From positions 24,524-88,523 of the forward strand of contig JBGAHZ010000028.1 of the NCBI GenBank assembly GCA_044225915.1: a stretch of DNA of 64,000 nt, in the 5' to 3' direction. Source of the stretch: Candidatus Obscuribacteraceae bacterium. GTDB lineage: Bacteria; Cyanobacteriota; Vampirovibrionia; Obscuribacterales; Obscuribacteraceae. A program made the translations under genes and the position numbers. Positions 48,981 to 63,265 of this stretch are shown here, piece after piece. How positions within the stretch are numbered: position 1 is the stretch's first letter; the number at the start of each line of letters is the position of its first letter. Under the pieces are notes generated by a model that made no database searches, was not told the DNA's origin, and was given only the letters and a program-made list of their open reading frames with translations.

Positions 48981-50072
48981 TCAGCGGCGGAAATTGAGCT
49001 TCCAATCCTCGTGGTCGGCGCGGACGGAGTTGGTCATGACGCGGACGGCGTCGAACAACCAGTTGTCACCGCGCTTCTTGAGGTCGGCTGCGATCCGTCT
49101 GGCGGCGCCTTCGGTGCCCATATGGACGTTGGCTGCTTCGATGCCCATGGCCCGCAGCAGCACTTCGGCGTTGGTGTTGGACGGCAAGTCCGAAAACTCA
49201 ACTCGTGAGCAGTCCGGAGCCAGCCGTCTGACAGTCCAGCCGTTATCGGCGACAACCGACGGGTCGCCGGAGTGAACCAGCAGACTTTCGCGGATGCGTC
49301 GGCCGACTGACGCCGGCTCGCCAAGACCAGCCCAGACACAGGCGGACGGCACGATCATTTTGGCTTCGCGTGCGATGCGGGCACCGTTCCAGTGACCGAG
49401 GGCAACGAAGCGCGGACGGCCGAGACTGCCTTTGCCTGCGGTTCTCGAACCGAAAGTGCAGTCGATGCCGGGTTCCGGCATATGACTGCGCAGCACTTGC
49501 TTCACGTCGTCACCGACCCGAGCGCGGCGGTTTACCTGAAGGTCGAGCTTCGCCCAGAACACCTTGGGGTGCCGGAGTTCGCTCGACACGATACGACCGA
49601 GTCGAACGTTTTCTTCAGCCAGAACGATAGGTTTGATGCCGCGAGCTAGACCTTCGCGATATCCGTCGAGGATGACCGAGCAAGCGTCGCTTACGCGAAT
49701 CGAGAGCTTGGATGCGCGAATGGCGAGCTTCGTCGAAGTTCCCAACCGCACGAGATCGAGCGTGTACGGCTGATGGTAAGCTTCATCGAAGTCGTTGATA
49801 CCCCAGATGAGCCGCCCTTCGCCGTCGCGCCAGGTGCTGTAGTTTTCGACGTGCAAGTCGCAGACTGCGCGGACAACAGCCGCGTCCATCAAATCACCGC
49901 AGAGGGTGGGAAAGACTTGAGCCCAGCGGTAGAAGGTGGCGCGGAGAAAAATAAACGGGTCGGAAGCCATGGCCTCGTGCTTTTTCACAAGGTCAGTCTT
50001 CACAACCGGGATGTGGGTGACCAGCCATTTCTCGAAAGATCTGGTGGCTGCCACGATTGTGGTGGATTTCAT
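48981..50072 (-). CDS. DUF2252-family protein
   Basis: The N-terminal SDPFIFLRATFYRW… block and a length of about 360 aa fit DUF2252. GGAG RBS precedes the ATG at 50072. Confidence 0.5.
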   Translation of the reverse strand: MKSTTIVAATRSFEKWLVTHIPVVKTDLVKKHEAMASDPFIFLRATFYRWAQVFPTLCGDLMDAAVVRAVCDLHVENYSTWRDGEGRLIWGINDFDEAYHQPYTLDLVRLGTSTKLAIRASKLSIRVSDACSVILDGYREGLARGIKPIVLAEENVRLGRIVSSELRHPKVFWAKLDLQVNRRARVGDDVKQVLRSHMPEPGIDCTFGSRTAGKGSLGRPRFVALGHWNGARIAREAKMIVPSACVWAGLGEPASVGRRIRESLLVHSGDPSVVADNGWTVRRLAPDCSRVEFSDLPSNTNAEVLLRAMGIEAANVHMGTEGAARRIAADLKKRGDNWLFDAVRVMTNSVRADHEDWKLNFRR

Positions 50073-50189
50073 TGTTAACTCCAATCTACCGCTATGGATA
50101 GACTACAAGTAATTTCGGATATTGTGCCAATCATCACCCTCGCGACTATAAGCGGTAGAGGAGCGGGCACCAACGAAAAGGCAGGGCGA

Positions 50190-50217
50190 AATCGATCGCC
50201 CTGCCTTCGCGATGCGC
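50190..50217 (-). terminator. Intrinsic-terminator-like hairpin 3' of tandem copy 1
   Basis: On the minus strand aggcagggcgatcgatttcgccctgcct is followed by TTTCGTT, giving a 10-bp GC-rich stem. Confidence 0.45.
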
Positions 50218-50305
50218 TTTCAGGCGCGCAGATAAGGGTGCTCCGAGACGACCATGCCGTGCGAGTCTCGCAGCAGCATGGTCGCTCAGAGCGGCTGGGA
50301 GGCGC

Positions 50306-51069
50306 TTAGCCTTGCGGCTTGTCGCCGGCCGGCGGGGTGGAGGGTGTGCTGGTCAGGGCGTCGAGCTTGGAGCGGCCGGACTTGGCGGCAGCCTTGGTCT
50401 TGATGTCCTTGAGCTCGCGCTCGCCGGCGGTGCCATCGGCCAGCTTCGCCTTGTTGCGGGCGACGTTGAGGTCGTGGTCGACGGCGTCGAAGTCCTCGGA
50501 GGCTTCGGAGAGCTGGTCGTTGATGTCCTTGGCCTGCTGCTTGGCGGCGGCCGAGGTGTTGATGGCGTCGGTCAGGTGAGCGTTGAGCTCGCTGTCGGCG
50601 ACCTTGTCGGCGAAGGCCTGGAGGGACTCGACGGTGGAGTCGAGGGCGGCCTGGGGGCCTGGGCTTCCTTGGAGGCGTTGGTGGCTTCGGCGAGGCGGCC
50701 CTTGATGCGCTCGACCTTGGCTTCGGCGGCTTCGAACTGCTTGCCGAGGGTGTCGAGGGCGGTTTCGGAGGCCTGCAGTTCCTTGGCGGTCTTGTACTCG
50801 CCCTGGATGGTGACGACGGCGGCCTGGGCTTCACCGAGGTCCTTGGTGATGTCGTCGACGGTGGCCATGCACTCGGCGACCGAGGTGCGCTGCGCGGGCA
50901 GGAGGGCCTTGAGCTGCTTGTAGCGGTCCTTGTTGCGCTCGACGGGCGTGGTGCCCTTGGAGACGACGGCGCCGCCGCGGATGCGGAGGAGCTGACGGAA
51001 GGCCGGCCAGGCGAAGAACAGGACGACGCCGAGGATGGCCAGAACGATAACGATGGTGGTACCAGTCAT
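50306..51069 (-). pseudogene. Tandem copy 1 of the membrane-anchored coiled-coil protein gene, frame-shifted by a 7-nt insertion near 50645
   Basis: The N-terminal 120 aa (MTGTTIVIVLAILGVVLFFAWPAFRQLLRIRGG…) are read by ORF 50572-51084, after which the frame is lost. Aligning against copy 2 shows an extra ggggcct. Confidence 0.55.
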
Positions 51070-51315
51070 GTGCGAATTCTCCAATTTGGATGTTTCGAGA
51101 TTTGGGAGTCAGGCGTGTTTGCCTGGATTTCCCGGTTTGGAGGAGCGACACATTGCCGCTCGCTCCGACACCTTCCACGTGGTGGCAGGTTGAAAAACGA
51201 TGTGGATGCCTCGAGAGACATCTACCTAATAACGAGCTGACGACCGAAATCGCCGACGAAGCGAGAGCTCCGCCGGCGATGCCTTGTGGTACTATCTGCG
51301 GTGCTCGGTTTGGGC

Positions 51316-51618
51316 TCAGAAGAAGAGCTTGTAACCGAGGCCGCCGATTGCAATCACCGCCAGAAGCAGGATGAACTGCAACTGTCTGATGCGAACGCGG
51401 TTTTCGGCTTCCGGCGCGGGTACCGGTTGTGGACGCTTCTCCGAGGGACCGGGAAGCCACCAGAACGGACCCGTGGGATCCAGTGAACTCCGTCGATAGT
51501 TCTGCTCGAAATTTCGCGCTCTTCGTGGAGCGAAGAGGAAGTAGTCGAACGTCAGGGCGACGATTCCCAGTGCGATCCCTGCTACGACGATGCCACCAAT
51601 CACGGTGAGGACGCTCAT
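51316..51618 (-). CDS. Small two-TM membrane protein between copies 1 and 2
   Basis: Hydrophobic N- and C-terminal helices (MSVLTVIGGIVVAGIALGIVALTF…ILLLAVIAIGGLGYKLFF). Confidence 0.3.
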   Translation of the reverse strand: MSVLTVIGGIVVAGIALGIVALTFDYFLFAPRRARNFEQNYRRSSLDPTGPFWWLPGPSEKRPQPVPAPEAENRVRIRQLQFILLLAVIAIGGLGYKLFF

Positions 51619-51802
51619 GCGTTTGCTCCGAACGGGCTTGCAACGGCATTGGCGCCGTGCTGTTAAGGGTGTTGTGCGATGTGAGCGATACCACTGAGCT
51701 TATGCTCGAGATGTTACCACCCGGGTGACGCGCGCCTCTGAACGACCATGACGTGCGGGCCTCGCACGAACATGGCCGCCCAGAGGCAATGGCTGAAGGC
51801 GA

Positions 51803-52573
51803 TCAGGCCTTCGGGGTGTCGCCGGCCGGCGGGGTGGTCGGGGCGGCCGGGGTGCTGGTCAGGGCGTCGAGCTTGGAGCGGCCGGACTTGGCGGCGGCCT
51901 TGGTCTTGATGTCCTTCAGCTCGCGCTCGCCGGCGGTGCCGTCGGCCAGCTTCGCCTTGTTGCGGGCGACGTTGAGGTCGTGGTCGACGGCGTCGAAGTC
52001 CTCGGCGGCCTCGGAGAGCTTGTCGTTGATGTCCTTGGCCTGCTGCTTGGCGGCGGCCGAGGTGTTGATGGCGTCGGTCAGGTGAGCGTTGAGCTCGCTG
52101 TCGGCGACCTTGTCGGCGAAGGCCTGGAGGGACTCGACGGTGGAGTCGAGGGCGGCCTGGGCTTCCTTGGAGGCGTTGGTGGCTTCGGCGCGAGGCGGCC
52201 CTTGATGCGCTCGACTTGGCTTCGGCGGCTTCGAACTGCTTGCCGAGGGTGTCGAGGGCGGTTTCGAGCCTGTGCAGTTCCTTGGCGGTCTTGTACTTTC
52301 GCCCTGGATGGTGACGACGGCGGCCTGGGCTTCCGCGAGGTCCTTGGTGATGTCGTCGACGGTGGCCATGCACTCGGCGACCGAGGTGGCGCTGCGCGGC
52401 AGGAGGGCTTCCTTGAGCTGCTTGTAGCGGTCCTTGTTGCGCTCGACGGGCGTGGTGCCCTTGGAGACGACTTCGCCGCCGCGGATGCGGAGGAGCTGGC
52501 GGAAGGCCGGCCAGGCGAAGAACAGGACGACGCCCAGGATGGCGAGCACGATAACGATGGTGGTTCCGGTCAT
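51803..52573 (-). CDS. Tandem copy 2: membrane-anchored coiled-coil protein (256 aa, DUF948-like TM plus helical architecture). Full-length ORF, but an internal segment is scrambled by compensating indels
   Basis: N-terminal TM helix followed by an Ala/Glu/Lys/Asp-rich helical domain and a Pro/Thr C-terminus. Residues about 95-145 (STRPPRNCTGSKPPSTPSASSSKPPKP…) are an alternate-frame reading of the segment that reads EYKTAKELQASETALDTLGKQFEAAEAKVERIKGRL in copy 1. Confidence 0.5.
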   Translation of the reverse strand: MTGTTIVIVLAILGVVLFFAWPAFRQLLRIRGGEVVSKGTTPVERNKDRYKQLKEALLPRSATSVAECMATVDDITKDLAEAQAAVVTIQGESTRPPRNCTGSKPPSTPSASSSKPPKPSRAHQGPPRAEATNASKEAQAALDSTVESLQAFADKVADSELNAHLTDAINTSAAAKQQAKDINDKLSEAAEDFDAVDHDLNVARNKAKLADGTAGERELKDIKTKAAAKSGRSKLDALTSTPAAPTTPPAGDTPKA

Positions 52574-53016
52574 GTGTGATTACTCCAGTTAGGATTTGTC
52601 GATTTGAGCAGAGCGTGATTGCCCTGCTCGGTGAGGTCGAAGGGCACATCGCCGTTCGACCAGTACGCTTGACCGTGACTCGGTCAGCAAGAGAAAACCA
52701 GGCGGTGATTGCCTTGTGGCACACGCCGCCCATACGCTCTTCCTGTTCCTCAGTCCGAGACGCACTCTGGCGTCGTCTGGCTGAAGACCGATGGGAAGAG
52801 GCAGAAGGTCGTCTGTGAGAGCACGACCGTCTGCCTCTCTCCACCTCTGTCTGTCGAGCAGGCAGAGGAAGAGAGGGCGAGCCGGAGGCAGTTGTCTGCG
52901 CATCCGGCTCGCGCCAGGGAGGCTTCAGCACCTGGGCTGTACCAGTCAGTCATTGCTGAACGGGTACAGCCCTCCGGTACTACCGGCGGTGCATGAAGTG
53001 AGCCGAACCGAACGGG

Positions 53017-53780
53017 GCGTTCGACTTAGCTCTGCGGCTTGTCGCCGGCCGGCGGGGTGGTCGGGGTGCTGGTCAGGGCGTCGAGCTTGGAGCGGCCGGA
53101 CTTGGCGGCGCCTTGGTCTTGATGTCCTTCAGCTCGCGCTCGCCGGCGGTGCCGTCGGCCAGCTTCGCCTTGTTGCGGGCGACGTTGAGGTCGTGGTCGA
53201 CGGCGTCGAAGTCCTCGGAGGCTCGGAGAGCTTGTCGTTGATGTCCTTGCCTGGTTGCTGGCGGCGGCCGAGGTGTTGATGGCGTCGGTCAGGTGAGCGT
53301 TGAGCTCGCTGTCGGCGACCTTGTCGGCGAAGAGCTGGAGGGACTCGACGGTGGAGTCGAGGGCGGGCCTGGGCTTCTTTGGAGGCGTTGGTGGCTTCGG
53401 CGAGGCGGCCTTTGATGCGCTCGACCTTGGCTTCGGCGGCTTCGAACTGCTTGCCGAGGGTGTCGAGGGCGGTTTCGGAGGCCTGCAGGTTCCTTGGCGG
53501 TCTTGTACTCGCCCTGGATGGTGACGACGGCGGCCTGGGCTTCACCGAGGTCCTTGGTGATGTCGTCGACGGTGGCCATGCACTCGGCGACCGAGGTGCG
53601 CTGAGCGGGCAGGAGGGCCTTGAGCTGCTTGTAGCGGTCCTTGTTGCGCTCGACGGGCGTGGTGCCCTTGGAGACGACTTCGCCGCCGCGGATGCGGAGG
53701 AGCTGGCGGAAGGCCGGCCAGGCGAAGAACAGGACGACGCCCAGGATGGCGAGAACGATAACGATGGTGGTGCCAGTCAT
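53017..53780 (-). pseudogene. Tandem copy 3 of the same gene, frame-shifted by a 1-nt insertion near 53374 and other indels
   Basis: ORF 53289-53885 reads MTGTT… through EYKTAKE, then loses frame. The C-terminal segment is found in other frames. Confidence 0.55.
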
Positions 53781-53997
53781 GTGATTGTACCTTTCGGATT
53801 TTGCCTTGTAAGGCGTTGGTGCGAGGCTTGCTTCGTGCAAGTGTCTCGCGGGTGTGAGCGCACTCGATGGAGGCGCCCGTAGCAAGACTGCACGCCGCCA
53901 TCAGGCGACGTGCTTTAGCGAAAAACCAAACAGTCTGTCGCTTGCGGTGGTTGACGACTACCTTCTCATGCTCCGGTCGAAACCGAAGACAATCGAT

Positions 53998-56900
53998 TTA
54001 GTAGTTGCCGCCGCCGCTGCGACCCTGATAAGACGCGCCGCCGGAGCCTCGATCGATGTTGCCACCGCCCGAGTTGCTCGGTCCGCTTGAGCGCGGGGTG
54101 TCGCCACCGCCGCCGTTGAACCCGCCACCGTTGAAGCCACCGCCGTTGCCGCCGGTGTTCTTCGGACGCATGGCTTCGCGCAGCGCTGCGGCCGCCGCTT
54201 CGGCTGCCGCTACTGCATCGTCGTGCTTCTTCTTGGCGCGGCCTGCGGCTGCCTCGTCGGCTTCTTCGGCTTCCGTGAACGCGGACTTCGCCTTGCTCTT
54301 GGCAGTGGCGTAATCCTTGTTGCGGAAGGCGTTGGCCGATTCGCGCAGCCGAGCATTGGCGGTCGAGACGTCGGCCTGGACGTCGTAGCCGTAGTCGTGA
54401 CGCGACACCGCCGCGATCTTCTCGCTGGCGGAGTCGTAGGCTGCATCGGCTTCGCCGCAGAGCTTGATCTCGGTCTGCGCCGATTCCTTGGCTTCGTCTG
54501 CCCTGGTCTTGGCGGCCCCGGCGTCGGAGCTGATGTCAGCCCAGTCGGACTTGGCGATGGTCAGCCGGCGGTTGGCTTCGTTGTAGGCGGAATTTGCCGC
54601 GGTCAGTTCGTCGCGAGTGCCCTGCGTGGTAGCGTTGTTGCTGACGTAGGGCTGCGCTTGCTGGATTGCGGTGTAAGCCGCGGCCACATCCGTGCGAGCC
54701 TGATCGTAGGCACGCTTCTGCGCGGCGATTGCCGTGTCGAAGCCTTCGAAACTGGCGACCACTTCGTGAGCGGCCTTGTTGACGGCCGGCCAGTCAGCGA
54801 TCTTCTTGTCGGACTCGACCTTCTGCCGATCGAGCTTGATCTTCGCGTCGGCGAATGCCTTGTCGGTCGCGGCAGAGGTGGTGAAGCTGTTGTCGCGGAA
54901 CACGCGAGCCAGACGTTCTGCGGTCTTGAGGCAAGTCGCGACGGTATCGCGGCTGTCCTGACGCAGACGGCGCAGCTCTTTCAGATGCGCGTGCACCTGA
55001 GTCAGCTCGCTGCGGGCGTTGTCCAGTGCCGACTGCGTGCTGCGGACCAGCGCGCGAGCGGCGATGAAGCGCTGCTGGTCGTAGAGCGCCTTGATGTTGG
55101 CCAGGCGCGTAATGGTGGCGTCGGCGGTGCCGTGCCCATTCGTCACCTTGGTGGGCTGGGTGCCGACGTTGGCAGCCAGGAAGTCGCGGTTGAGCTCCAC
55201 GACAGCCTCGTCGGCGGCCGGCAGTTCGTTGTTGAGGCTGACCAGCGTGGTGCGTGCGGGCGTCACGCTTCCTTCGACCGTAGCCTTGGCGGAGACGATG
55301 TCGTCCACCAGCTTGCTCGCCTTGTCGGCAAACGCGCTGGCTTCGCCCTTGGCCTTGTCCGCCTCGTCGAGCTTGCCCGCATAGACGAGGGCCGTGGCGC
55401 TGTCCCAGCTCTTCTGTGCGTCGGCGAGATGGGCATCCGGATTGGCGCCTTCCTCATCGAGCAAGAAACTGGGCGAACGCAGCTCCATCGGCTTGGACTC
55501 ATCCTTGCCGAGCGGGTACTGGTAGGCAGCCGCGGCCTTGCGTTGATCGGCGACCTTGGTGGTCGACGTGCCGATCTGGGTGCGCACGGTGGCCAGCAGC
55601 TTCTTGATGGAGATTGCCCGCTTGAGCCGCTCCCCGAGTGCCTTGAACCCGGCTTCGACCGTTTCGGAGCCGGCGAAGGCTTCCAGCGGATCGGAGCTGA
55701 GAATGGCGATGAAGGCGGTTTGACCTGCCTTCAGCTCGCGAATCGTTCCTTCATAGGGTTCCATCGTCAGCTCGGCAGCCTTGATGTCCGCCCGCTGAGC
55801 GTTGACCTGGCCGTCCAGGGCTTCGACGTCAAGCTTGTTCTGCTTGGCGCCGTTGAAGGCGGAGACGATGCCGGCCAGTGCCTTGTTGGTGCGCTCGAAC
55901 AGAGCCGACATGGCGTCGAGCAGTTCGCCCGGCTTGTAGTCGGCTTTCTCGACCAGACCCCCGAACAGCGTCGCCTCTTCCAGCGGCAGATTGTCGCCGG
56001 TCACCTCGATGGTGCGAAGGCTGAGCAGTTGCTCGACTTCGTCGAAGCCTTTGACCGACGGGAACGAATTGGAGGCGAACGCTTTGCGCGCAGCTTCCAG
56101 GGTGTCCGTCGCCACCTTGCGACGAGCGGAGAATGCGGCGAAGTCCTTACACGCTGCCGTGTAGGTCGTGAGCGTGCGGTTCTTGAACTTGGTCTTCCAG
56201 TCCGACTGCTCGGTGAGGAAGCCCATGTAGCCCGTGCGCAGCTTGAGGTAGAGCGCGTTTGCCGAGTCGAGCTTGGTGGCCCAATCGGCAATCAGCGCTT
56301 CCATCTTCTTGCGGCGCGACGAGTTGCGCACAAGAAGGAAGATCAGTGTGCCAAGGAGGATGGCGGCCAGGGCGCCTCCGCCGATGTAGTACGGCATCGC
56401 CTTCTGGAGCGCCGCTGCCTTTTCGGCTTCGGCCTGACGAGCCTTGATGCCGTCGATGTTGCCGTTGACCACGACGACGATGGCTTCGAACGCGCCGGCC
56501 GGGTCCTGAGGCATGAAGCGCCTCAAGTTGGGAATCACCGGTCCGGAAGTCGTGTCGGAGAAGTAGGCGGCGGTCATCCCCCAATCGGAGAACAAGTTGC
56601 CGCCTTGAGCAGCAACCGATCCCTTATTGGGATTGTCGGCTCGCCGCACCCACATGATGATCATGTAGTTGTCGGACGGGAAGCCGGGTCGCGACTGCCA
56701 CTTCAAGACGAGCTTGTCGAGCGCGTCTCGGCCGGGGATGGAAGCGTTGGCCAGGTCGGAAGCGCCTTCGGTCGCCACCACATAGATCTGCAGTCCGTTG
56801 CGCTGCCCTTCTTGAATCAGTTTGGGCTCGAGTGCGGACAAATCGACCGGTGCCTGACGGTTGCGCGCCAGTTGCGGGTCGACATATACATGCCTGTCCG

Positions 56901-57021
56901 GGCTGAATTCCGGAAGCCAGGTCTGAGATGACTGCGCGAGTGCCGGCTGTGCTAGCACCATGAAGGTGAGCAGCAGAGCCGCTGTGATTACACTGCGCCA
57001 ATGCGAAAGTTGTCTGAGCAT
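53998..57021 (-). CDS. TPM-domain (TLP18.3/Psb32/MOLO-1) membrane protein with a long cytoplasmic coiled-coil and a Gly-rich C-terminus (1007 aa)
   Basis: Signal peptide. The periplasmic region (…HVYVDPQLARNRQAPVDLSALEPKLIQEGQRNGLQIYVVAT…AIVVVVNGNIDGIKA) is TPM-like. A single TM follows (YYIGGGALAAILLGTLIFLLV). The tail is GGNGGGFNGGGFNGGGG. Confidence 0.55.
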   Translation of the reverse strand: MLRQLSHWRSVITAALLLTFMVLAQPALAQSSQTWLPEFSPDRHVYVDPQLARNRQAPVDLSALEPKLIQEGQRNGLQIYVVATEGASDLANASIPGRDALDKLVLKWQSRPGFPSDNYMIIMWVRRADNPNKGSVAAQGGNLFSDWGMTAAYFSDTTSGPVIPNLRRFMPQDPAGAFEAIVVVVNGNIDGIKARQAEAEKAAALQKAMPYYIGGGALAAILLGTLIFLLVRNSSRRKKMEALIADWATKLDSANALYLKLRTGYMGFLTEQSDWKTKFKNRTLTTYTAACKDFAAFSARRKVATDTLEAARKAFASNSFPSVKGFDEVEQLLSLRTIEVTGDNLPLEEATLFGGLVEKADYKPGELLDAMSALFERTNKALAGIVSAFNGAKQNKLDVEALDGQVNAQRADIKAAELTMEPYEGTIRELKAGQTAFIAILSSDPLEAFAGSETVEAGFKALGERLKRAISIKKLLATVRTQIGTSTTKVADQRKAAAAYQYPLGKDESKPMELRSPSFLLDEEGANPDAHLADAQKSWDSATALVYAGKLDEADKAKGEASAFADKASKLVDDIVSAKATVEGSVTPARTTLVSLNNELPAADEAVVELNRDFLAANVGTQPTKVTNGHGTADATITRLANIKALYDQQRFIAARALVRSTQSALDNARSELTQVHAHLKELRRLRQDSRDTVATCLKTAERLARVFRDNSFTTSAATDKAFADAKIKLDRQKVESDKKIADWPAVNKAAHEVVASFEGFDTAIAAQKRAYDQARTDVAAAYTAIQQAQPYVSNNATTQGTRDELTAANSAYNEANRRLTIAKSDWADISSDAGAAKTRADEAKESAQTEIKLCGEADAAYDSASEKIAAVSRHDYGYDVQADVSTANARLRESANAFRNKDYATAKSKAKSAFTEAEEADEAAAGRAKKKHDDAVAAAEAAAAALREAMRPKNTGGNGGGFNGGGFNGGGGDTPRSSGPSNSGGGNIDRGSGGASYQGRSGGGNY

Positions 57022-57479
57022 GAGAACTCCCAGCTGTTGGTTCGTTTGCGCTTAGCGTGATTACTGGAGCGCATGGCAAAACCGCCTCGTGAGAGACAGT
57101 GTGAAATTCGGTGTGCGATGGTTAGAACGGTTGGGGTGAGGGGTGAGACTTCCAGAGCTGCGGTTGAAACAAGATACGCACAGAACCTACGAAACGGCTG
57201 GACGTGTGCCCAACGATTATTGACGGTTTGTGAAGTTATCTCGTATTAACCCCGCCGAAAATTTGCCGAATTCGGGGTTGCCAAGAGCCACTCGATCAAT
57301 ATCGAATGGCTCTCGACAAGCTTCTCGTGACATCACGGCAAAATTATGATGTGACGGAATTTAAGCACCTCTTGACTAGCCAAGTTAGCGTAGCGCGAAC
57401 CATGGTTTCTAAGAGCCGCTTAATTAGCCGGTTTCGAAGGCCGTTCTCGGTGTTCGAGTGCACTGCATATGGTGGCGCG

Positions 57480-58619
57480 CTATTCGGTTTTCTCTGTGTC
57501 CGCCGTTTGAGCTGGCGTTTCCGTCCCCACCTTCGTGGTCGCTGACGGGCTCGCCGCGCCGGGACTCGAGGCGCCCAGGCTGTCGGGGCAAGACTGGCAG
57601 TGACGACGCGAGCTCACTTTGATCTGCACTTCGTTACTGCACGCCTGTACGCGCAGGGCGCGGATGCCCTTCAAAAGCCGGCTCTCATCAGGATTCACGT
57701 CGACCGGCGCTTTGATGGCTGCCGTATACGGATTCAGATCGAGATGCATGCGCACCCAGTATGTGTTGGTGTGCGTCACGGGCCAGCGCGCCGGAAGCTT
57801 GAGTTCATCAGGGATGTGACTCTCCGGCAGATTTTGCAGACTGACCAGCCAGGTCTCTTGCAATACCGTCAGGCGCGAACCGCCATCGCGGGCGGAGAAC
57901 TCGGACAACCCCTGGGCAAGCGCATTGTAAGCCAGTTCGTGTTCACCATACGTGAAACGAAAGTTGTTGCGCTCGAAGAAGCGCGCGACGTTAAACCAGC
58001 TCGGTACCGCGTCGACGCGGTGATAACCCAGCTCTTTGAGCAGCTTGATGGTTTCCTTGATGAAAAACTGCGGTACGCCCTTCATCGGACGAGCCGTCTG
58101 CCAGGGACCACGACCGATGTGAAACGCCTGCTCCCACAAGGGAAAGAATGTGGAGGGCTGGAAGTTTTTCCAGACATAATAGTCCGGGTCGGCAATGAAG
58201 TGGCCGAGAGTGCCTTCCGTAGCCAATCCATCGAGCAGGGTCTGTGGATCCCAGGAGTAGATGGAAATTTCGCACGCTTCGAAACCGACACCAGGCAAGC
58301 GATTGCAAGCCGGGTCGACGTTGGGGTAGAACGTCAAAGGCGAGCTGCCGTCCGTGCCGTCCAGTTTGCGGTCACGGATGGCGCACATGAGGATCTTCTC
58401 GCCTTTGTTCCAGGCTTCGATCAACACGCGCACGCCGTCGTTGCGAACCAGGATGCGTCCGGATTTGCCGGTGTAAGTATAAAACGTGACGCCACCAGCT
58501 TCTTTGACTTCAGGGTCGGTAAGCGGAATAGCGATTTCTGCAAGAGCAAAGACCGATGAATGCACCAGTCGAGTAAGAATCTGTCCCGTAGGGACCATAG
58601 AAATTTTTGTCTTTTCCAT
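57480..58619 (-). CDS. Conserved hypothetical protein, paralog of 24109-25173; possible GNAT-fold C-terminal half
   Basis: Paralogous blocks are listed under 24109-25173. LKELGYHRVDAVPSWFNVARFFERNNFRF resembles the GNAT 'N..A..fY.k.GF' motif. Confidence 0.4.
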   Translation of the reverse strand: MEKTKISMVPTGQILTRLVHSSVFALAEIAIPLTDPEVKEAGGVTFYTYTGKSGRILVRNDGVRVLIEAWNKGEKILMCAIRDRKLDGTDGSSPLTFYPNVDPACNRLPGVGFEACEISIYSWDPQTLLDGLATEGTLGHFIADPDYYVWKNFQPSTFFPLWEQAFHIGRGPWQTARPMKGVPQFFIKETIKLLKELGYHRVDAVPSWFNVARFFERNNFRFTYGEHELAYNALAQGLSEFSARDGGSRLTVLQETWLVSLQNLPESHIPDELKLPARWPVTHTNTYWVRMHLDLNPYTAAIKAPVDVNPDESRLLKGIRALRVQACSNEVQIKVSSRRHCQSCPDSLGASSPGAASPSATTKVGTETPAQTADTEKTE

Positions 58620-59510
58620 GGTTTGACTCCATGTTTAGTTGTTATCACCGGCTCTAGTCAGCAGGTGCTCGTTCAAGAAAGCTGATGGTGCGCGCGTTTC
58701 CATCTGCATATCAGGCAGAAGTGAAAGAGCTTTCGAATGAGTGAGTGCGCGCTAGTTCAGTTGCAGGTACTGTCAGATTGAAAATAAGAAGTACAGATGA
58801 ACTAACAAATCATGAGATGTTATTACTAGTTCGAGAATCTGAATTGTTTTTCTATGGGCAATTGCAAACCACTTAAATTTCGACTGCGAACACGCGAAAA
58901 CGCTAACTTTTGAAATGCTTAAGCGCCGCTCAGGAAGCGGGTTGTTGAGATTGTTTACAACCGGTGACAAGTTGCGCTAGCGATCAATCTTTCGTTAATA
59001 ATTGCCCGCTAGGTTTTGGAAAAACGTTGATGGAAAGCGGCTTTGCGCCGTTTAAACCGCTACTCATCTGCGGTTTGGGCTCTATATATCACGACGATTG
59101 ATCTGGCCTTAGTAGTGTTTAACTCTTGTGTTATTGCTCCAAAAGCCGAGTTTCACATAGCTTGTGTAGTCAACTTCAATTCTTTTCCAAACAGGACCTT
59201 TTCGCCGCACAGTATGCACTCGAACTCACTCACCGCCAAAACAATCGTCTGAAAAACGATGTGAGTACGCGTCCTGTCCAAACCTGGAAGAGAAGTTGAA
59301 GAAAAAAGTTCGGTTGAAGAATAAGTTCGGCACTGTCTTGAGCGCTTTCCGGTGAGAAGCGATCAGGTGGTGCTTGCACGATTGTCTTCAGACCGAAGTA
59401 GTGTTCGTTCCTTGCTCGTGATGTCATCCGCGGTGGCATTAATCGAGCAGGTCTTAACCCGGGATGAAACGATGTTGCGATCGTTTTGTCTCAACCAAGG
59501 AGAGTTCTCC

Positions 59511-60173
59511 ATGAAAGCAAAATTCCTAGTTTCTGCCGCCCTCGGGGCAGGCAAGAAGAAATCGGGTGTCGAGCAGGTGGAAACACCGATGCTGATGCTC
59601 GCGAAGTTTTCAGGGATGAACCTGAGCGCCGATCTGGAAGGGTTGGTCGCAAGCTCCGATGGTCTCATCCAGGACCGGCTGACGGAGAGCGGCTTCAAAG
59701 GTGTAGCTGGTGAACAGCTCACCATCGAGCTCGCTCCCGGCAGCAAGCAAAAGCAGGTGATGTTCGTCGGGCTCGGTAAAGCCGGCGGCTTCAACTGCGG
59801 CACTGTCCGTGATACCATCAAGCTGGCCGTCGAAAACGCTGTCGCGACCGGCAGCGAGCGGCTGTCCATCCCAATCATGCCCAACCGGCTGACGTCAGCC
59901 AGCATGGGTCTCATGTTCACCGCCCACATCATCAAGTGCGTCGCCGACGACGTGCTGGCTGAGAAGAAGGGCGATGGCACACTCGAGATCGAGCTGATCA
60001 CGTCTCCGCATGGCAAGCGCCATGTGGAAGCCGGCATCAAGAAGGCACGCAAGCAGTCCGGTCCCAAGCCTTGCGGCGTTTGCGATGAGGTCAAGCCGAA
60101 GGCTGCCAGCAAATCGGCCGCCAAGCCGGATGCCAAAGCCGCAGGCACCAAGAAAGCCGCTTGCAGGAAGTAG
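59511..60173 (+). CDS. Stand-alone protein resembling the N-terminal domain of M17 leucyl aminopeptidase, with a Lys/Ala-rich tail
   Basis: AAGGAGA RBS. FKGVAGEQLTIELAPGSKQKQVMFVGLGKAGGF…SERLSIPIM resembles the Peptidase_M17_N fold. No catalytic domain is present. Confidence 0.3.
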   Translation: MKAKFLVSAALGAGKKKSGVEQVETPMLMLAKFSGMNLSADLEGLVASSDGLIQDRLTESGFKGVAGEQLTIELAPGSKQKQVMFVGLGKAGGFNCGTVRDTIKLAVENAVATGSERLSIPIMPNRLTSASMGLMFTAHIIKCVADDVLAEKKGDGTLEIELITSPHGKRHVEAGIKKARKQSGPKPCGVCDEVKPKAASKSAAKPDAKAAGTKKAACRK

Positions 60174-60525
60174 ATCGCTCAAGTTCAGGATCCTGAAGGG
60201 TATTGCCTGCTCAGACCGCTTCTAGCAAAGGCGGCTTGAGTCGGGTGTTGACGTGGCCACGTCAGGGAAGCGGAGTTTCATCGACGCAAGTCGGTGATTC
60301 TTCCGCTTCCCAATTTCAACCATTTCTACTAGTCTAAGTCGTTAATTCTGGTTCGCAGATACTATGGTTTGTAGCAGAGTTGCCGGGAAGGTCAAATGCG
60401 AAAGGGGACGATTCAAAATCCAGGGCTGGTGCCCAGGAGCTGAGTCGTCCGCAATTCGCATCTGCCTGTCGATAGCGGAGGACCGTTATGGAATGGTCTT
60501 CGTGAACCGAACGACGGTCGGTTGT

Positions 60526-60852
60526 CTACTGATGGTCGGCGGGCGGCTCGGCGTTGACGCCGAGTTTGTATGAGCCGACGCGAATCACCAGATTGCTCTG
60601 GTTGCGACAGAACTTCTTGAGACCGTTGCTATCGCTGGTAAACGCACAGATGATCGAGCCCACGACGGCGGCGCCGACCATAATGCCTGCCACTGTCCAT
60701 TGACGTTCGCGAATGGCGGGGATGGCAGCCAGCACGCCGGCGCATATGCCGGGAATGATGGCGCCGAGGAAGCCCTGGTAGTTGCCGGCGCCGAGACCGA
60801 AACCTGCTGCCAGAGCGAACAAACCCATGAGAATGATTAGAATCGTGTTCAT
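60526..60852 (-). CDS. GlsB/YeaQ/YmgE-like small stress-associated membrane protein
   Basis: Three short Gly-rich TM helices (…IILMGLFALAAGFGLGAGNYQGFLGAIIPGICAGVLAAI…MVGAAVVGSIICAF). Confidence 0.35.
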   Translation of the reverse strand: MNTILIILMGLFALAAGFGLGAGNYQGFLGAIIPGICAGVLAAIPAIRERQWTVAGIMVGAAVVGSIICAFTSDSNGLKKFCRNQSNLVIRVGSYKLGVNAEPPADHQ

Positions 60853-60936
60853 TTTGAGAGTATCCGGGGTTGTGACGCGGTCCGGGAAAGTGGTGGCACA
60901 TCGCCACCACTTCCCGAACGCGCAGAAATCGGGATG

Positions 60937-62304
60937 CTACGCGCTCTTGAGCGCGGTCTGAATCGCGCGGGCGCGGGCGACGAGCGCCAGCATGGCGTCC
61001 TTGCCTGCGAGCGGGTCGCTGGTGTAGGACTTGCGCACTTCCACTTCGTCGCGGTTGATGGCGTCGAACTCGCCCTTGTGAGGCGCGAAAGCTGCGTCAC
61101 CGATACGACCCCACTTCATCTCGATGTCGGCTTGCACCGCATCGAGGTCGGAGCCGGCGGCGAGCGCTTCCTTGATCGAGCGCATGATGCCCGACAGCGC
61201 CTTGTTGGTCTGGTCGAACAACGTCGCCATCGAGTTGAGCAGCTCGTTGGGCTTGTAGTCGTTCTTCTTGACCAGACCGCCGAACAGCGTTGCATCTTCC
61301 AGCGCGATGTCGGAGCCTTCGACCGTCACCGTCTCGTTCGCCAGTTTGTTGATGCAACCCTGGTAGTTGCCCGCGTCGAACAGCTTGCGCGCATCGACGA
61401 GATGAGCGTTGGCTTTGGTACGCCGCGCCGAGAAGTCGGCGAAGTTGGTGAGCGCCGCCTCGTACTGGGACTTGGTGGCGCCGGTGAACTTGCCCTTCCA
61501 GTCCGATTGATCCTGGACGAATCCGAGGTAACCGGCCCGGAGCTTGAGGTAGAGGGCGTTTGCCGAATCCATCTTCTCGGTCCAGTCGGCCAGAGCCGCC
61601 TGCGCGGTAGCCTTCAACGCGCCGGTCGAACGCGAGCGCATGAAGAAGAAGGCGCCGGCGCCGCCAAGCGCAAGCAGGATGACGAACACGATCGGCAGCT
61701 TGCTCATGAAGTTGGAGTGCTCGGTCGCCTGCTGCTGCGCGGCGTTGTAGTCGTCGATCACCTTGTTGACGTTCGCGGCGATGCCGTTGAAGAGCCCCTT
61801 CGGGTCTTGTGGCATGTACTTTTTGACAGCCGGAACCACAGGACCGGTCGCCGAGTTGAGTGTGGCGCCATTCAGTCCGTAGACCTTCAGGTTGGAGCCG
61901 GCGTTGACCGCGACCCAGCCTTCCGACGGATTGGTGGCACTGCGCATCCAGAGCATGAGCACGTAGTTGTCGCTCGGGAAGCCATTGGCTCCGCCCCAAC
62001 GCAAGAGCAGCTCATCGAGGCGATTGGCGCCCAGGTTGCCGGAACCGGTTTCGGTCGTTTGCTGAACGACCACGACCAGAAACTTGACGTTGTTTTTCTC
62101 GCCGGCTTCCTTGAGCTTCTGCTCGAGACCGGGCAGCGCCACAGGGAAATCCGGGTTGTTGGCGACAGCCGGATCGATGTAAACCTGCGTGCCCGACTTG
62201 AAGTCCGGACGCCAGGGCTGAGCCGCTGCCGCCTGAGCCGGTGCCAGGACAAGCAAGGCAATAAGCATCACGAGCGCGCTCGTGAGTTTCGTTACGAAGT
62301 TCAT
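60937..62304 (-). CDS. TPM-domain membrane protein (455 aa), paralog of the N-terminal half of 53998-57021
   Basis: Signal peptide, TPM-like periplasmic domain, one TM. DWTEKMDSANALYLKLRAGYLGFVQDQSDWKGKF aligns with DWATKLDSANALYLKLRTGYMGFLTEQSDWKTKF in the larger protein. Confidence 0.55.
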   Translation of the reverse strand: MNFVTKLTSALVMLIALLVLAPAQAAAAQPWRPDFKSGTQVYIDPAVANNPDFPVALPGLEQKLKEAGEKNNVKFLVVVVQQTTETGSGNLGANRLDELLLRWGGANGFPSDNYVLMLWMRSATNPSEGWVAVNAGSNLKVYGLNGATLNSATGPVVPAVKKYMPQDPKGLFNGIAANVNKVIDDYNAAQQQATEHSNFMSKLPIVFVILLALGGAGAFFFMRSRSTGALKATAQAALADWTEKMDSANALYLKLRAGYLGFVQDQSDWKGKFTGATKSQYEAALTNFADFSARRTKANAHLVDARKLFDAGNYQGCINKLANETVTVEGSDIALEDATLFGGLVKKNDYKPNELLNSMATLFDQTNKALSGIMRSIKEALAAGSDLDAVQADIEMKWGRIGDAAFAPHKGEFDAINRDEVEVRKSYTSDPLAGKDAMLALVARARAIQTALKSA

Positions 62305-62329
62305 GTTTGCTGTACTCCTAGGTTTAGCG

Positions 62330-63265
62330 TTAGCTGTTGGCGTCCGCCTTGAAGCGGTCGTGGCAATCAGCGTTGACGTATGCGAGAAGCGGTGACTCGT
62401 GCACCGTGACGGTGAGCTTCGATCCGCGAGGGAATTCGCGAGTGATGTGCTGACCGTCGATGTAGAGCCGACCTTCGAACATGCCGGAGGTGACGACCAA
62501 CTTGTGGTCGATCACTTCACCGCCACGCAATTCGAAGCGCTCCCCGGGTGTGCGGAAAGGCTTGTCCACCCAGAATGCGAATGTCTGGTCGACGATGTCC
62601 GCAATCGGACCACCGGCGGAGCGCATGAAACCAGTCGAGCCACTCGGAGTCGAGATGATCAACCCCGATGATTTGTGCTCGGCCGTTACACCAGCTACTT
62701 CGAGTTTGTAGCGGCTGGTTCCTGCCGGGCAGGAGTGCGTGACCAGGACCTCGTTGAGAACGGGCATGTCGAATGCCGGTTGGCAGTCGATTGAGAGCTG
62801 CAGCCGAAGCAGTGCAAGCGGCTTGCGTGCGCCACGGAGAATGGCATCGATGGTGGCTTCGAAGCCGGCGCGGTCTGTGAGGCAGAAGTGACCGAAGCTG
62901 GTGAGCGGCGCCGAGTTGACGCCCAGCATCGGAACCGTGCCGCGCACCGAGTGCGAAGCATCGAGGAAGGTGCCGTCACCGCCGACGGTGACAATCAACT
63001 CCTCATTCCCGACGTCGAAGTGCTCGCCAGGAGCGCGTGCGACGCACCGAGCATCGATGTCGCGGTCATGTAGTACATCGACCACATGCTGGAGGGTGAG
63101 GCGATGCTCCTGGTCCGTGCGCTCGATGCGGGCGTTTTCACTGCAGTCGGGCTCGAGCAGACGTTTGAAACGCGCCTCATCGGAAGCCAGAGCTTTCGAC
63201 TTGAGCGTTTCTTTCACCACGACCAAAACGCGCTTGGGTTGTGCTGTTAGACCTGTCATTACCAT
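62330..63265 (-). CDS. nadK: NAD+ kinase
   Basis: VTVGGDGTFL matches the GGDG motif. LIISTPSGSTGFMRSAGGPI matches the NAD-kinase motif DGxxxSTxxGSTAYSxSAGGP. Confidence 0.75.
   Translation of the reverse strand: MVMTGLTAQPKRVLVVVKETLKSKALASDEARFKRLLEPDCSENARIERTDQEHRLTLQHVVDVLHDRDIDARCVARAPGEHFDVGNEELIVTVGGDGTFLDASHSVRGTVPMLGVNSAPLTSFGHFCLTDRAGFEATIDAILRGARKPLALLRLQLSIDCQPAFDMPVLNEVLVTHSCPAGTSRYKLEVAGVTAEHKSSGLIISTPSGSTGFMRSAGGPIADIVDQTFAFWVDKPFRTPGERFELRGGEVIDHKLVVTSGMFEGRLYIDGQHITREFPRGSKLTVTVHESPLLAYVNADCHDRFKADANS

Follow-up and report, generated by a model that had tools for sequence, protein, structure and literature searches.

A very divergent TPM-fold membrane protein and its tandemly repeated genomic partner in Obscuribacterales and some Cyanobacteria

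TPM/YgcG proteins are widespread, and the contexts in which they are known are photosystem II assembly and respiratory supercomplexes. YgcG-type members (COG1512; Pfam PF04536, TPM_phosphatase, with TLP18.3, Psb32, and BA41) combine a signal peptide, an exported TPM domain, a transmembrane (TM) segment, and a Gly-rich tail. Their genes are classically neighbors of genes for LemA, a helical-bundle protein with the fold of PDB 2ETD, for which no function is known to be established. The loci compared here bear out this classical adjacency: one carries a canonical LemA–YgcG–TPM operon (L017), and a LemA gene adjoins YgcG/TPM genes at another (L019). In YdjH, the conserved partner of PspA, a long coiled coil comes after the TPM domain (PMC11237479). 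In EzrA, an N-terminal TM anchor is combined with cytoplasmic antiparallel helical bundles.

Here, we compare these systems with a locus in a 64,000-nucleotide stretch of DNA from a Candidatus Obscuribacteraceae bacterium (the window). The focal genes in the window (long and short TPM-fold paralogs, nadK, and three copies of an array gene) are all encoded on the minus strand. The locus reveals a TPM-fold family that is missed by standard models and has a conserved, giant helical arm, predicted to be cytoplasmic; the family of the long paralog appears to have a dedicated partner with amplified gene dosage.

The long and short paralogs

The ORF list and a comparison of the array copies agree with an earlier, sequence-only reading in placing the long paralog, a protein of 1007 aa (53998..57021, minus strand), upstream of a three-copy array. 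The protein begins with a signal peptide (residues 1–29), followed by an exported TPM-fold domain of ~170 aa (residues ~35–205; 56407–56919) and a single TM segment (residues 212–232; 56326–56388). The region past the TM segment (residues 233–1007, ~775 aa) is predicted to be cytoplasmic and consists of a conserved helical domain (residues 233–450), a further conserved helical/coiled-coil region (residues 451–940), and the Gly-rich tail (residues 941–1007; GGNGGGFNGGGF...SGGGNY, the last residues being GRSGGGNY) that had already been recognized. The coiled coil had been put at ~550 aa, which understates the cytoplasmic part; in the homolog comparison, conservation extends over all ~1000 residues of the protein. 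At least 191 representative clusters match this family, which is without annotation and many members of which are ~1000 aa long. Sequence searches of the PDB with the long protein, both single-sequence and profile-based, returned nothing relevant.

As read from its sequence, the long paralog has the YgcG-type architecture: it has a signal peptide, one TM segment following the domain, and a Gly-rich tail with an aromatic last residue, comparable to that of a Ralstonia YgcG, which ends GGFGGG...GGGGASGKW. Two members of the family are labeled YgcG in IMG. Unlike YgcG, however, the long paralog falls outside the Pfam model, carries a ~700-aa conserved helical region between the TM segment and the Gly-rich tail, and has a partner gene that is not LemA.

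The short paralog (455 aa; 60937..62304, minus strand) has a signal peptide, a TPM-fold domain, a TM segment, and a conserved cytoplasmic helical domain, and it lacks both the long coiled coil and the Gly-rich tail of the YgcG-type architecture. The two proteins are 38 per cent identical over 418 aa (E = 7e-89) and are indeed paralogs, as had been proposed. The placement of the short paralog beside nadK (NAD kinase; 62330..63265, minus strand) was likewise correct: nadK lies 25 bp upstream, the synteny is kept, and in the loci compared the short paralog always adjoins nadK and never array genes. The paralogs do not flank the array as claimed, both being located on its upstream side. Because the short paralog is never accompanied by array genes, the suggested grouping of two TPM proteins and the array does not constitute a single module.

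The TPM assignment of both paralogs is valid at the fold level only, as their sequences are very divergent and lie outside the Pfam model. Neither the 1007-aa nor the 455-aa protein matches PF04536 even at E ≤ 1, and sub-significant matches were found in three of 57 homologs (E of 0.027–0.11; two of 12 at a best E of 0.11 and one of 45 at 0.027). An hhalign comparison of the N-terminal domain with three real TPM/YgcG proteins aligned 113 columns in equivalent order with a probability of 0.9 per cent, both alignments being very shallow. The domain has the TPM alpha/beta sandwich (beta-alpha-beta-alpha-beta-beta-alpha-alpha), and the top Foldseek match in the PDB is BA41. The earlier description of two TPM-domain proteins thus holds for the fold but not for a match to the Pfam family.

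Array copies and conservation of the pairing

The array comprises three tandem copies of a ~760-nt gene, none of which is intact in the window; the differences are 1-, 2-, and 8-bp indels. Copy C (53026..53780, minus strand), which encodes a TM anchor and three long helices, is disrupted by five 1-bp indels. Copy B (51803..52573, minus strand) is open for 256 aa (P0004) with an internal stretch out of frame; its frame is shifted by indels of +2, −1, and +2 bp, and it also carries a −1/+1 pair that cancels out as well as insertions (3 and 9 bp) that preserve the frame. In copy A (50306..51069, minus strand), the break is due to a tandem duplication of 8 bp (CCCAGGCC) around position 50600. An independent contig (L025), which is 98.7 per cent identical to the window and has one mismatch in ~560 nt upstream of copy A, does not have this duplication, and its intact copy A encodes 251 aa (P0001). 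Intact 251-aa versions are present both in relatives and on this almost identical contig, which makes errors of assembly or polishing the most likely source of the frameshifts in all three window copies.

Alternatively, the frameshifts could be genuine and the array decayed to pseudogenes, and thus non-functional, in this strain. The presence of indels in all three copies, the same type of damage in the array of a second metagenome-assembled genome (MAG; L005/L008), and the location of most indels at short homopolymers, which are also prone to replication slippage, would all fit such decay. However, indel events are nearly as many as substitutions, which is unusual for natural decay, and there are no gaps between the copies of the intact relatives (L001, L003, and L009). 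Long ORFs in the rest of the window show no breaks, and the intact copy A of the independent contig has a nearly identical upstream flank. The damaged array of the second MAG is on an 815-kb contig, and if this is a long-read assembly, as seems probable, multi-copy regions in it would be poorly polished. We therefore regard real decay as unlikely. Programmed frameshifting and phase variation were set aside, as indel positions differ per copy and intact, near-identical genes are found elsewhere. On a practical note, near-identical tandem genes may look like pseudogenes in MAG assemblies, as they do in these two genomes.

Array-family genes, one to three in number and in the same orientation, follow the long protein in nine of the ten informative lineages. 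There are three copies downstream of it in the window and at L001/L011, L003, L005/L008, and L009, at least two at L010, and one at L023 (hhalign probability of 98.8 per cent); on a distant branch (L021 and L027), the array family also follows the long protein (97.3 per cent). The one lineage without the pairing is a cyanobacterial contig that has the long protein and no array gene (L024); in addition, L002 carries an array gene on its own, the long protein being absent up to 10 kb away. The association with a TPM-fold protein in other genomes, on which the sequence-only reading depended, is therefore found, for the long paralog only. The array protein is the conserved genomic partner of the long paralog, which alone of the two paralogs is linked to it, and the module is lineage-specific and unannotated, occurring in Obscuribacterales and some Cyanobacteria.

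The adjacency is kept across lineages whose array proteins have diverged to ~25 per cent identity, and synteny that outlasts such divergence usually marks a functional link. Array copies within a genome share 95–99.7 per cent DNA identity in L001, L003, and L009 and 89.8 per cent in L010; between genomes, the values are 57–75 per cent. Judging from these identities, the array copies evidently undergo concerted evolution.

Affinities and proposed role of the array protein

In the array protein, an N-terminal TM segment is followed by a helical domain, for which a weak model (pLDDT of 62) gives a generic three-helix bundle with helices of 56, 52, 51, and 25 residues. In all 12 array-family sequences, there are no K/R residues before the TM segment and 2–5 after it, so the helical domain should be cytoplasmic and is predicted to lie across the membrane from the TPM domain. 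A Foldseek search of the PDB with the model gave no match at E < 1e-3, and the 50 matches listed of 939 are generic helical bundles. The notion that the array is a fragment of the long gene was rejected, as BLASTP of the array protein against the long protein detected no homology.

The sequence-only reading proposed that the array protein is a functional LemA analogue working with TPM domains in an envelope maintenance or repair module. The gross layout is alike, in that the gene of a small helical protein with an N-terminal TM segment adjoins a TPM-fold gene, and adjacency to a TPM-type gene is shared by the array family and canonical LemA. The proposal itself noted that the LemA signature is missing, and our comparisons agree: five real LemA proteins contain RRxDLIPNL and the blocks YP..L / YN..I..FP, which the array-family alignment lacks, and an hhalign comparison of the family with five such proteins yields a probability of 2 per cent over 22 columns. 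The Pfam listings (E ≤ 1) for the reconstructed array protein and the 22 homologs contain neither LemA nor DUF948 nor PspA; LemA (PF04011) is likewise missing from the matches listed for P0001 and from the 25 families matched most widely across the homologs. Of the 50 Foldseek hits listed of 939 for the low-confidence model, none is a LemA structure. Unlike in LemA–YgcG–TPM operons, the gene order is reversed (the array is downstream of the TPM gene), the array gene is multi-copy, and the array helices are predicted to be on the cytoplasmic side, whereas a lipoprotein signal in at least one canonical LemA would put that protein in the periplasm. Neither does the short TPM paralog have an array partner. 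The proposal thus keeps its genomic association with a TPM-fold protein, but the searches show no sequence similarity to LemA or DUF948 and no LemA fold among the matches listed for the low-confidence model, and we consider a LemA analogue very unlikely.

The documented TPM(YdjH)–PspA partnership of Bacillus subtilis offers another parallel, as it also pairs a TPM domain, TM segment, and long coiled coil with a ~220–250-aa helical protein at the cytoplasmic membrane face (PMC11237479). YdjH, with its coiled-coil or low-complexity tail, recruits PspA in Bacillus, and the array protein could likewise be a membrane-anchored, highly divergent PspA/ESCRT-III-like protein recruited by the TPM/coiled-coil protein. 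Its helix lengths are compatible with that fold, Vipp1/PspA structures are among the Foldseek hits of the array model (E of 0.02–0.06; probability of 0.92–0.99), and the L023 homolog weakly matches PspA_IM30 (E = 0.003; 17.6 bits against a cut-off of 33.9) and Snf7 (E = 0.012). However, the Vipp1 matches to this low-confidence model are mixed with matches to Smac, MIC60, and designed bundles and do not surpass them, the Pfam matches are sub-threshold and occur amid dozens of coiled-coil families, and hhalign gives probabilities of 0.3 per cent for the array family against E. coli PspA and 0.6 per cent for the distant branch (L021/L027) against PspA. The array protein differs in being anchored by a TM segment of its own and in lacking significant PspA similarity, and the window locus has no band-7/flotillin or YdjG-like gene. 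Such an identity is, in our view, decidedly unlikely.

Also unlikely is an independent role for the array protein, as an abundant structural element anchored in the membrane (mini-EzrA-like or cytoskeletal) that shares only a conserved locus or regulation with the long protein. EzrA (PF06160) is the commonest weak Pfam match of the array family (14 of 22 homologs; best E of 6.6e-7) and also matches the long protein, but the scores of 20.6 bits for the reconstructed array protein, 20.5 for P0001, and 19.7 for the long protein (other array homologs being given by E only) are below the gathering threshold of 39.6. The N-terminal TM anchor and the antiparallel three-helix bundle, predicted to be cytoplasmic, follow the EzrA-type layout. 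The resemblance is confined to architecture, and even there a single bundle (250 aa) in the array protein compares with five repeats (~560 aa) in EzrA. Independence would also be in keeping with the ~200–700 bp spacer that precedes each array copy, with the promoter-like site before copy C (the one site found in a promoter scan, a number close to chance expectation), and with the unpaired genes of L002 and L024. The same-orientation adjacency in nine of ten lineages, surviving the divergence of the array proteins, argues for a functional link instead.

The reading that we put forward, as a tentative one, is that of a conserved two-family membrane module in which the array protein is the cytoplasmic-face partner of the coiled coil of the long protein, with a role in membrane/envelope organisation or maintenance, and in which the copy breaks are assembly errors. 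The N-terminal fold, the paralogy, the kept adjacency, the concerted evolution of the copies, and the negative LemA and PspA comparisons are results, whereas topology, physical interaction, and function are what we infer. The long protein would place a YgcG-type, very divergent TPM-fold domain on the periplasmic side, joined by one TM helix to a ~775-aa cytoplasmic helical/coiled-coil arm with a Gly-rich end. The array protein would contribute an N-terminal TM anchor and, on the cytoplasmic side, a ~170-aa three-helix bundle with a disordered Pro/Thr tail, and its one to three tandem gene copies may be kept nearly identical by gene conversion. The multiple near-identical copies suggest that the array protein is required in excess over the long protein. 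It would most likely assemble with the helical region of the long protein at the cytoplasmic face, in which case the resulting scaffold would span the membrane, connect the TPM domain in the periplasm with a protein layer beneath the membrane, and serve the organisation or maintenance of the membrane or envelope.

By analogy, the logic of this two-family module appears to have more in common with the TPM(YdjH)–PspA pairing, or with EzrA-like anchored helical scaffolds, than with LemA–TPM. The apparent location of the partner on the cytoplasmic side points to TPM proteins as transmembrane organisers rather than periplasmic enzymes. A more specific and quite improbable version is a new membrane-spanning scaffold in Melainabacteria and Cyanobacteria, in which a lattice of array proteins under the membrane would be organised by the ~775-aa arm and coupled outward by the periplasmic TPM domain; if true, the cytoplasmic tails of YgcG-type TPM proteins would for the first time be given a role in the cell.

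Neighboring genes

Scans for Rfam families (47–64 kb) and tandem repeats (49.9–62.4 kb) found nothing notable, predicted terminators were fewer than in shuffled controls, and an NCBIfam search gave coiled-coil noise only (SMC and Rad50). A defence system was rejected, as PADLOC likewise returned only coiled-coil noise (JetC and LmuB). The spacer that separates copies B and A contains a 100-aa ORF with two hydrophobic segments (51316..51618, minus strand), which is of uncertain status: it is identical in L025, where it is called as a gene, and had no tblastn match in loci other than the window and L025.

Immediately upstream of the long paralog lies the gene of a 379-aa protein of unknown family (57480..58619, minus strand), which is kept in some lineages (73 per cent identity in L001, 63 per cent in L014, and 54 per cent in the distant L023); its only matches among PDB sequences, to designed TIM barrels, were dismissed as spurious. 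A 108-aa multi-TM ORF (60526..60852, minus strand), conserved in L007 and L013, is situated between the short paralog and a divergently transcribed gene (59352..60173, plus strand) whose product carries a Peptidase_M17 N-terminal-like domain only. This M17_N-like gene adjoins the module in all Obscuribacterales loci with sufficient upstream sequence, as well as in L023.

Association of the long paralog with the array genes

The sequence-only reading had proposed a LemA-TPM-like module, in which the array proteins (small helical proteins with a transmembrane [TM] anchor) would act as LemA analogs and be flanked by two TPM paralogs. Nearly all genes between 50.3 and 63.3 kb are carried on the minus strand, and the long paralog (1007 aa; 53998–57021) and the short paralog (455 aa; 60937–62304), both on that strand, lie upstream of the minus-strand array copies C (53026–53780), B (51803–52573), and A (50306–51069), which are genes of ~760 nt each. 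The array is therefore not flanked by the two paralogs; instead, its three genes directly follow the long paralog.

In a genome scan with one genome per species, relatives were found only in Candidatus Obscuribacterales. The same-strand order of the long paralog and then array genes recurs in the loci L001/L011, L003, L005/L008, and L009 (three copies each) and in L010 (at least two copies, the array being cut off by the contig end). In the distant locus L023, the long paralog precedes one array gene (hhalign probability 98.8 per cent, E = 4e-17), and in L021 and L027, which are more distant still, the downstream proteins of TM-plus-helical architecture are homologous to the array family (hhalign probability 97.3 per cent). 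Contigs L021 and L026 stop just past the long gene, and a run of Ns interrupts L027 inside a duplicated segment, as one would predict if assemblies were broken by repeated genes at these places. Two exceptions are L024, a cyanobacterial contig with Psb34 that encodes the long protein and no array gene, and L002, which has a solitary array gene. The association of a TPM protein with array genes in other genomes, which the earlier proposal had named as a check, is thus real across these lineages. The short paralog always adjoins nadK and never array genes in the loci examined, which argues against a single module with both paralogs. The module itself is real, conserved, lineage-specific, and previously unannotated; what is new here is a partner family joined to a TPM/YgcG variant.

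State of the array copies

Copies A, B, and C align at the DNA level with a mean column identity of 93 per cent and many small indels, most of which fall at short homopolymers. In copy A there is a tandem duplication of 8 bp, and in copy C there are five indels of 1 bp. Copy B combines a compensating −1/+1 pair with insertions of 3 and 9 bp that keep the frame and with further changes (+2, −1, and +2 bp) through which its ORF stays open (256 aa, P0004) but is shifted out of frame over ~36 codons. A majority-base consensus of the three copies yields a reconstructed protein of 254 aa, and intact homologs of 247–256 aa exist.

We consider it likely that these frameshifts arose through errors of assembly or polishing limited to the multi-copy region, because array genes are intact in an independent short-read contig (L025) and in relatives, and long ORFs outside the array are uninterrupted in the window. 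The same kind of damage is found in a second Obscuribacterales MAG (L005 10001–12993/L008). L025 is 98.7 per cent identical to window positions 49977–51629, with a single mismatch over the upstream flank of copy A (~560 nt); the 8-bp duplication is absent from it, and its protein of 251 aa (P0001) is hence intact. In L001, L003, and L009, the array copies are intact and gap-free among themselves. Just downstream of the array in L005 (13187–13551) are ~5 tandem copies of a 73-bp unit, of which Tandem Repeats Finder detected no counterpart in window positions 49900–62400.

Within genomes, array copies are 95–99.7 per cent identical in L001, L003, and L009 and 89.8 per cent identical in L010, whereas identity between genomes is 57–75 per cent. 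Judging from these sequences, the higher identity within genomes indicates gene conversion among the copies, and their similarity is consistent with selection for dosage.

Fold and topology of the two components

The two paralogs are 38 per cent identical over 418 aa (E = 7e-89). Sequence evidence for their TPM identity is weak: Pfam PF04536 does not match either one even at E ≤ 1 and matches only 3 of 57 sequences among homologs (E = 0.027–0.11), a profile search of PDB sequences found nothing, and an hhalign comparison with three real TPM/YgcG proteins, although it paired 113 columns in equivalent order, did not reach significance. The structural evidence is better. In an AF2 model of residues 1–451 (pLDDT 71.5), the N-terminal domain has the order beta-alpha-beta-alpha-beta-beta-alpha-alpha, and the best Foldseek match is the TPM protein BA41. 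Two family members are labeled 'YgcG' by IMG, and the Gly-rich C-terminal tail of the long paralog (GGNGGGFNGGGF...GRSGGGNY) resembles that of the canonical Ralstonia YgcG. Because the modeled fold with its BA41 match, the labels, and the tail agree, we assign both paralogs to the TPM/YgcG fold class, as very divergent members outside the Pfam model; the TPM identity read from the sequence thus holds only at the level of fold.

The N-terminal-domain profile matches at least 191 representative clusters, with many proteins of ~1000 aa and many of ~450 aa. The long paralog is conserved over its entire length among ten orthologs, and its cytoplasmic region is therefore a real set of domains and not mere low complexity. 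Six short repeated stretches (profile positions ~119–150) account for the whole match of the 1851-aa protein P0157 (L028 6001–11556), which is probably a repeat protein rather than a genuine member of the family.

For the array family, Pfam and NCBIfam gave only sub-threshold coiled-coil matches. The commonest was EzrA (14 of 22 homologs); LemA, DUF948, and PspA were absent from the Pfam matches listed for the reconstructed protein and the 22 homologs. The hhalign probabilities were 2 per cent against five LemA proteins and 0.3 per cent against E. coli PspA. Membership of the EzrA, LemA, or PspA family is not supported. The LemA genes were fetched from plasmids with a bait sequence, and their loci show the canonical LemA-YgcG-TPM operon; the PspA query is 100 per cent identical to a real record. 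The AF2 model of the array protein is weak (pLDDT 62), with a TM helix, three long helices (42–97, 102–153, and 157–207), and a disordered tail. Its Foldseek matches were generic bundles (MIC60, Smac, Vipp1, and designed proteins), with no E < 1e-3 and no LemA among the best 50 of 939.

In all 12 array-family sequences, K/R residues are absent before the TM segment and number 2–5 after it. The positive-inside rule predicts a cytoplasmic location for the helical domain, on the same side as the helical region of the long paralog and opposite the TPM domain. Together with the LemA comparisons, this predicted topology speaks against the array proteins as LemA analogs. The sequence-only reading is upheld in part, both in what it observed and in its interpretation.

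Our best reading, which we hold tentatively, is a conserved module in which a YgcG-type TPM protein, extended into the cytoplasm by a giant helical arm, is paired with a small, abundant partner that is anchored at the cytoplasmic face; together they would form a membrane-spanning scaffold. This putative function is drawn only from anatomy and context. Among documented systems, the closest in logic is the partnership of PspA with YdjH, which has a TPM domain and then a coiled coil (PMC11237479), and the closest in architecture is EzrA.

Neighboring genes

Only 25 bp separate nadK (62330–63265, minus strand; Pfam NAD_kinase domains) from the short paralog downstream of it. This gap and the same adjacency in seven other loci (L005, L007, L009, L012, L013, L014, and L015) suggest co-transcription. 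Between the two paralogs are a minus-strand multi-TM ORF of 108 aa (60526–60852), a plus-strand gene (59352–60173) for a protein with a Peptidase_M17 N-terminal-like domain and no catalytic domain, and a minus-strand gene (57480–58619) for a 379-aa protein without a Pfam or NCBIfam family match. The M17-like gene is conserved at this site, divergent from the module, across the examined Obscuribacterales loci as well as L023. The 379-aa protein, which may be an enzyme, has counterparts in L023 (6229–7326), L001 (4970–6127), and L014 (15087–16127, where both the long gene and the array are missing); at 54 per cent identity, it is far better conserved to L023 than are the TPM-like or array proteins (array ~25 per cent).

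A minus-strand ORF of 100 aa (51316–51618) with two hydrophobic segments lies in the spacer that separates copy B from copy A. It is identical in L025 and called as a gene there; no homolog in other loci and no family were found. GC content is 63–65 per cent at 50–56 kb (the array and the long gene) versus 51–55 per cent in surrounding genes, which probably reflects Ala/Gly-rich coding, a foreign origin being less likely. Two distant lineages share a gene for a TerC-family membrane protein close to the module, which is absent from the window's locus: it immediately follows the array in L003 (10924–11751)/L004 (1439–2266) and lies ~7 kb upstream in L021 (200–1270).
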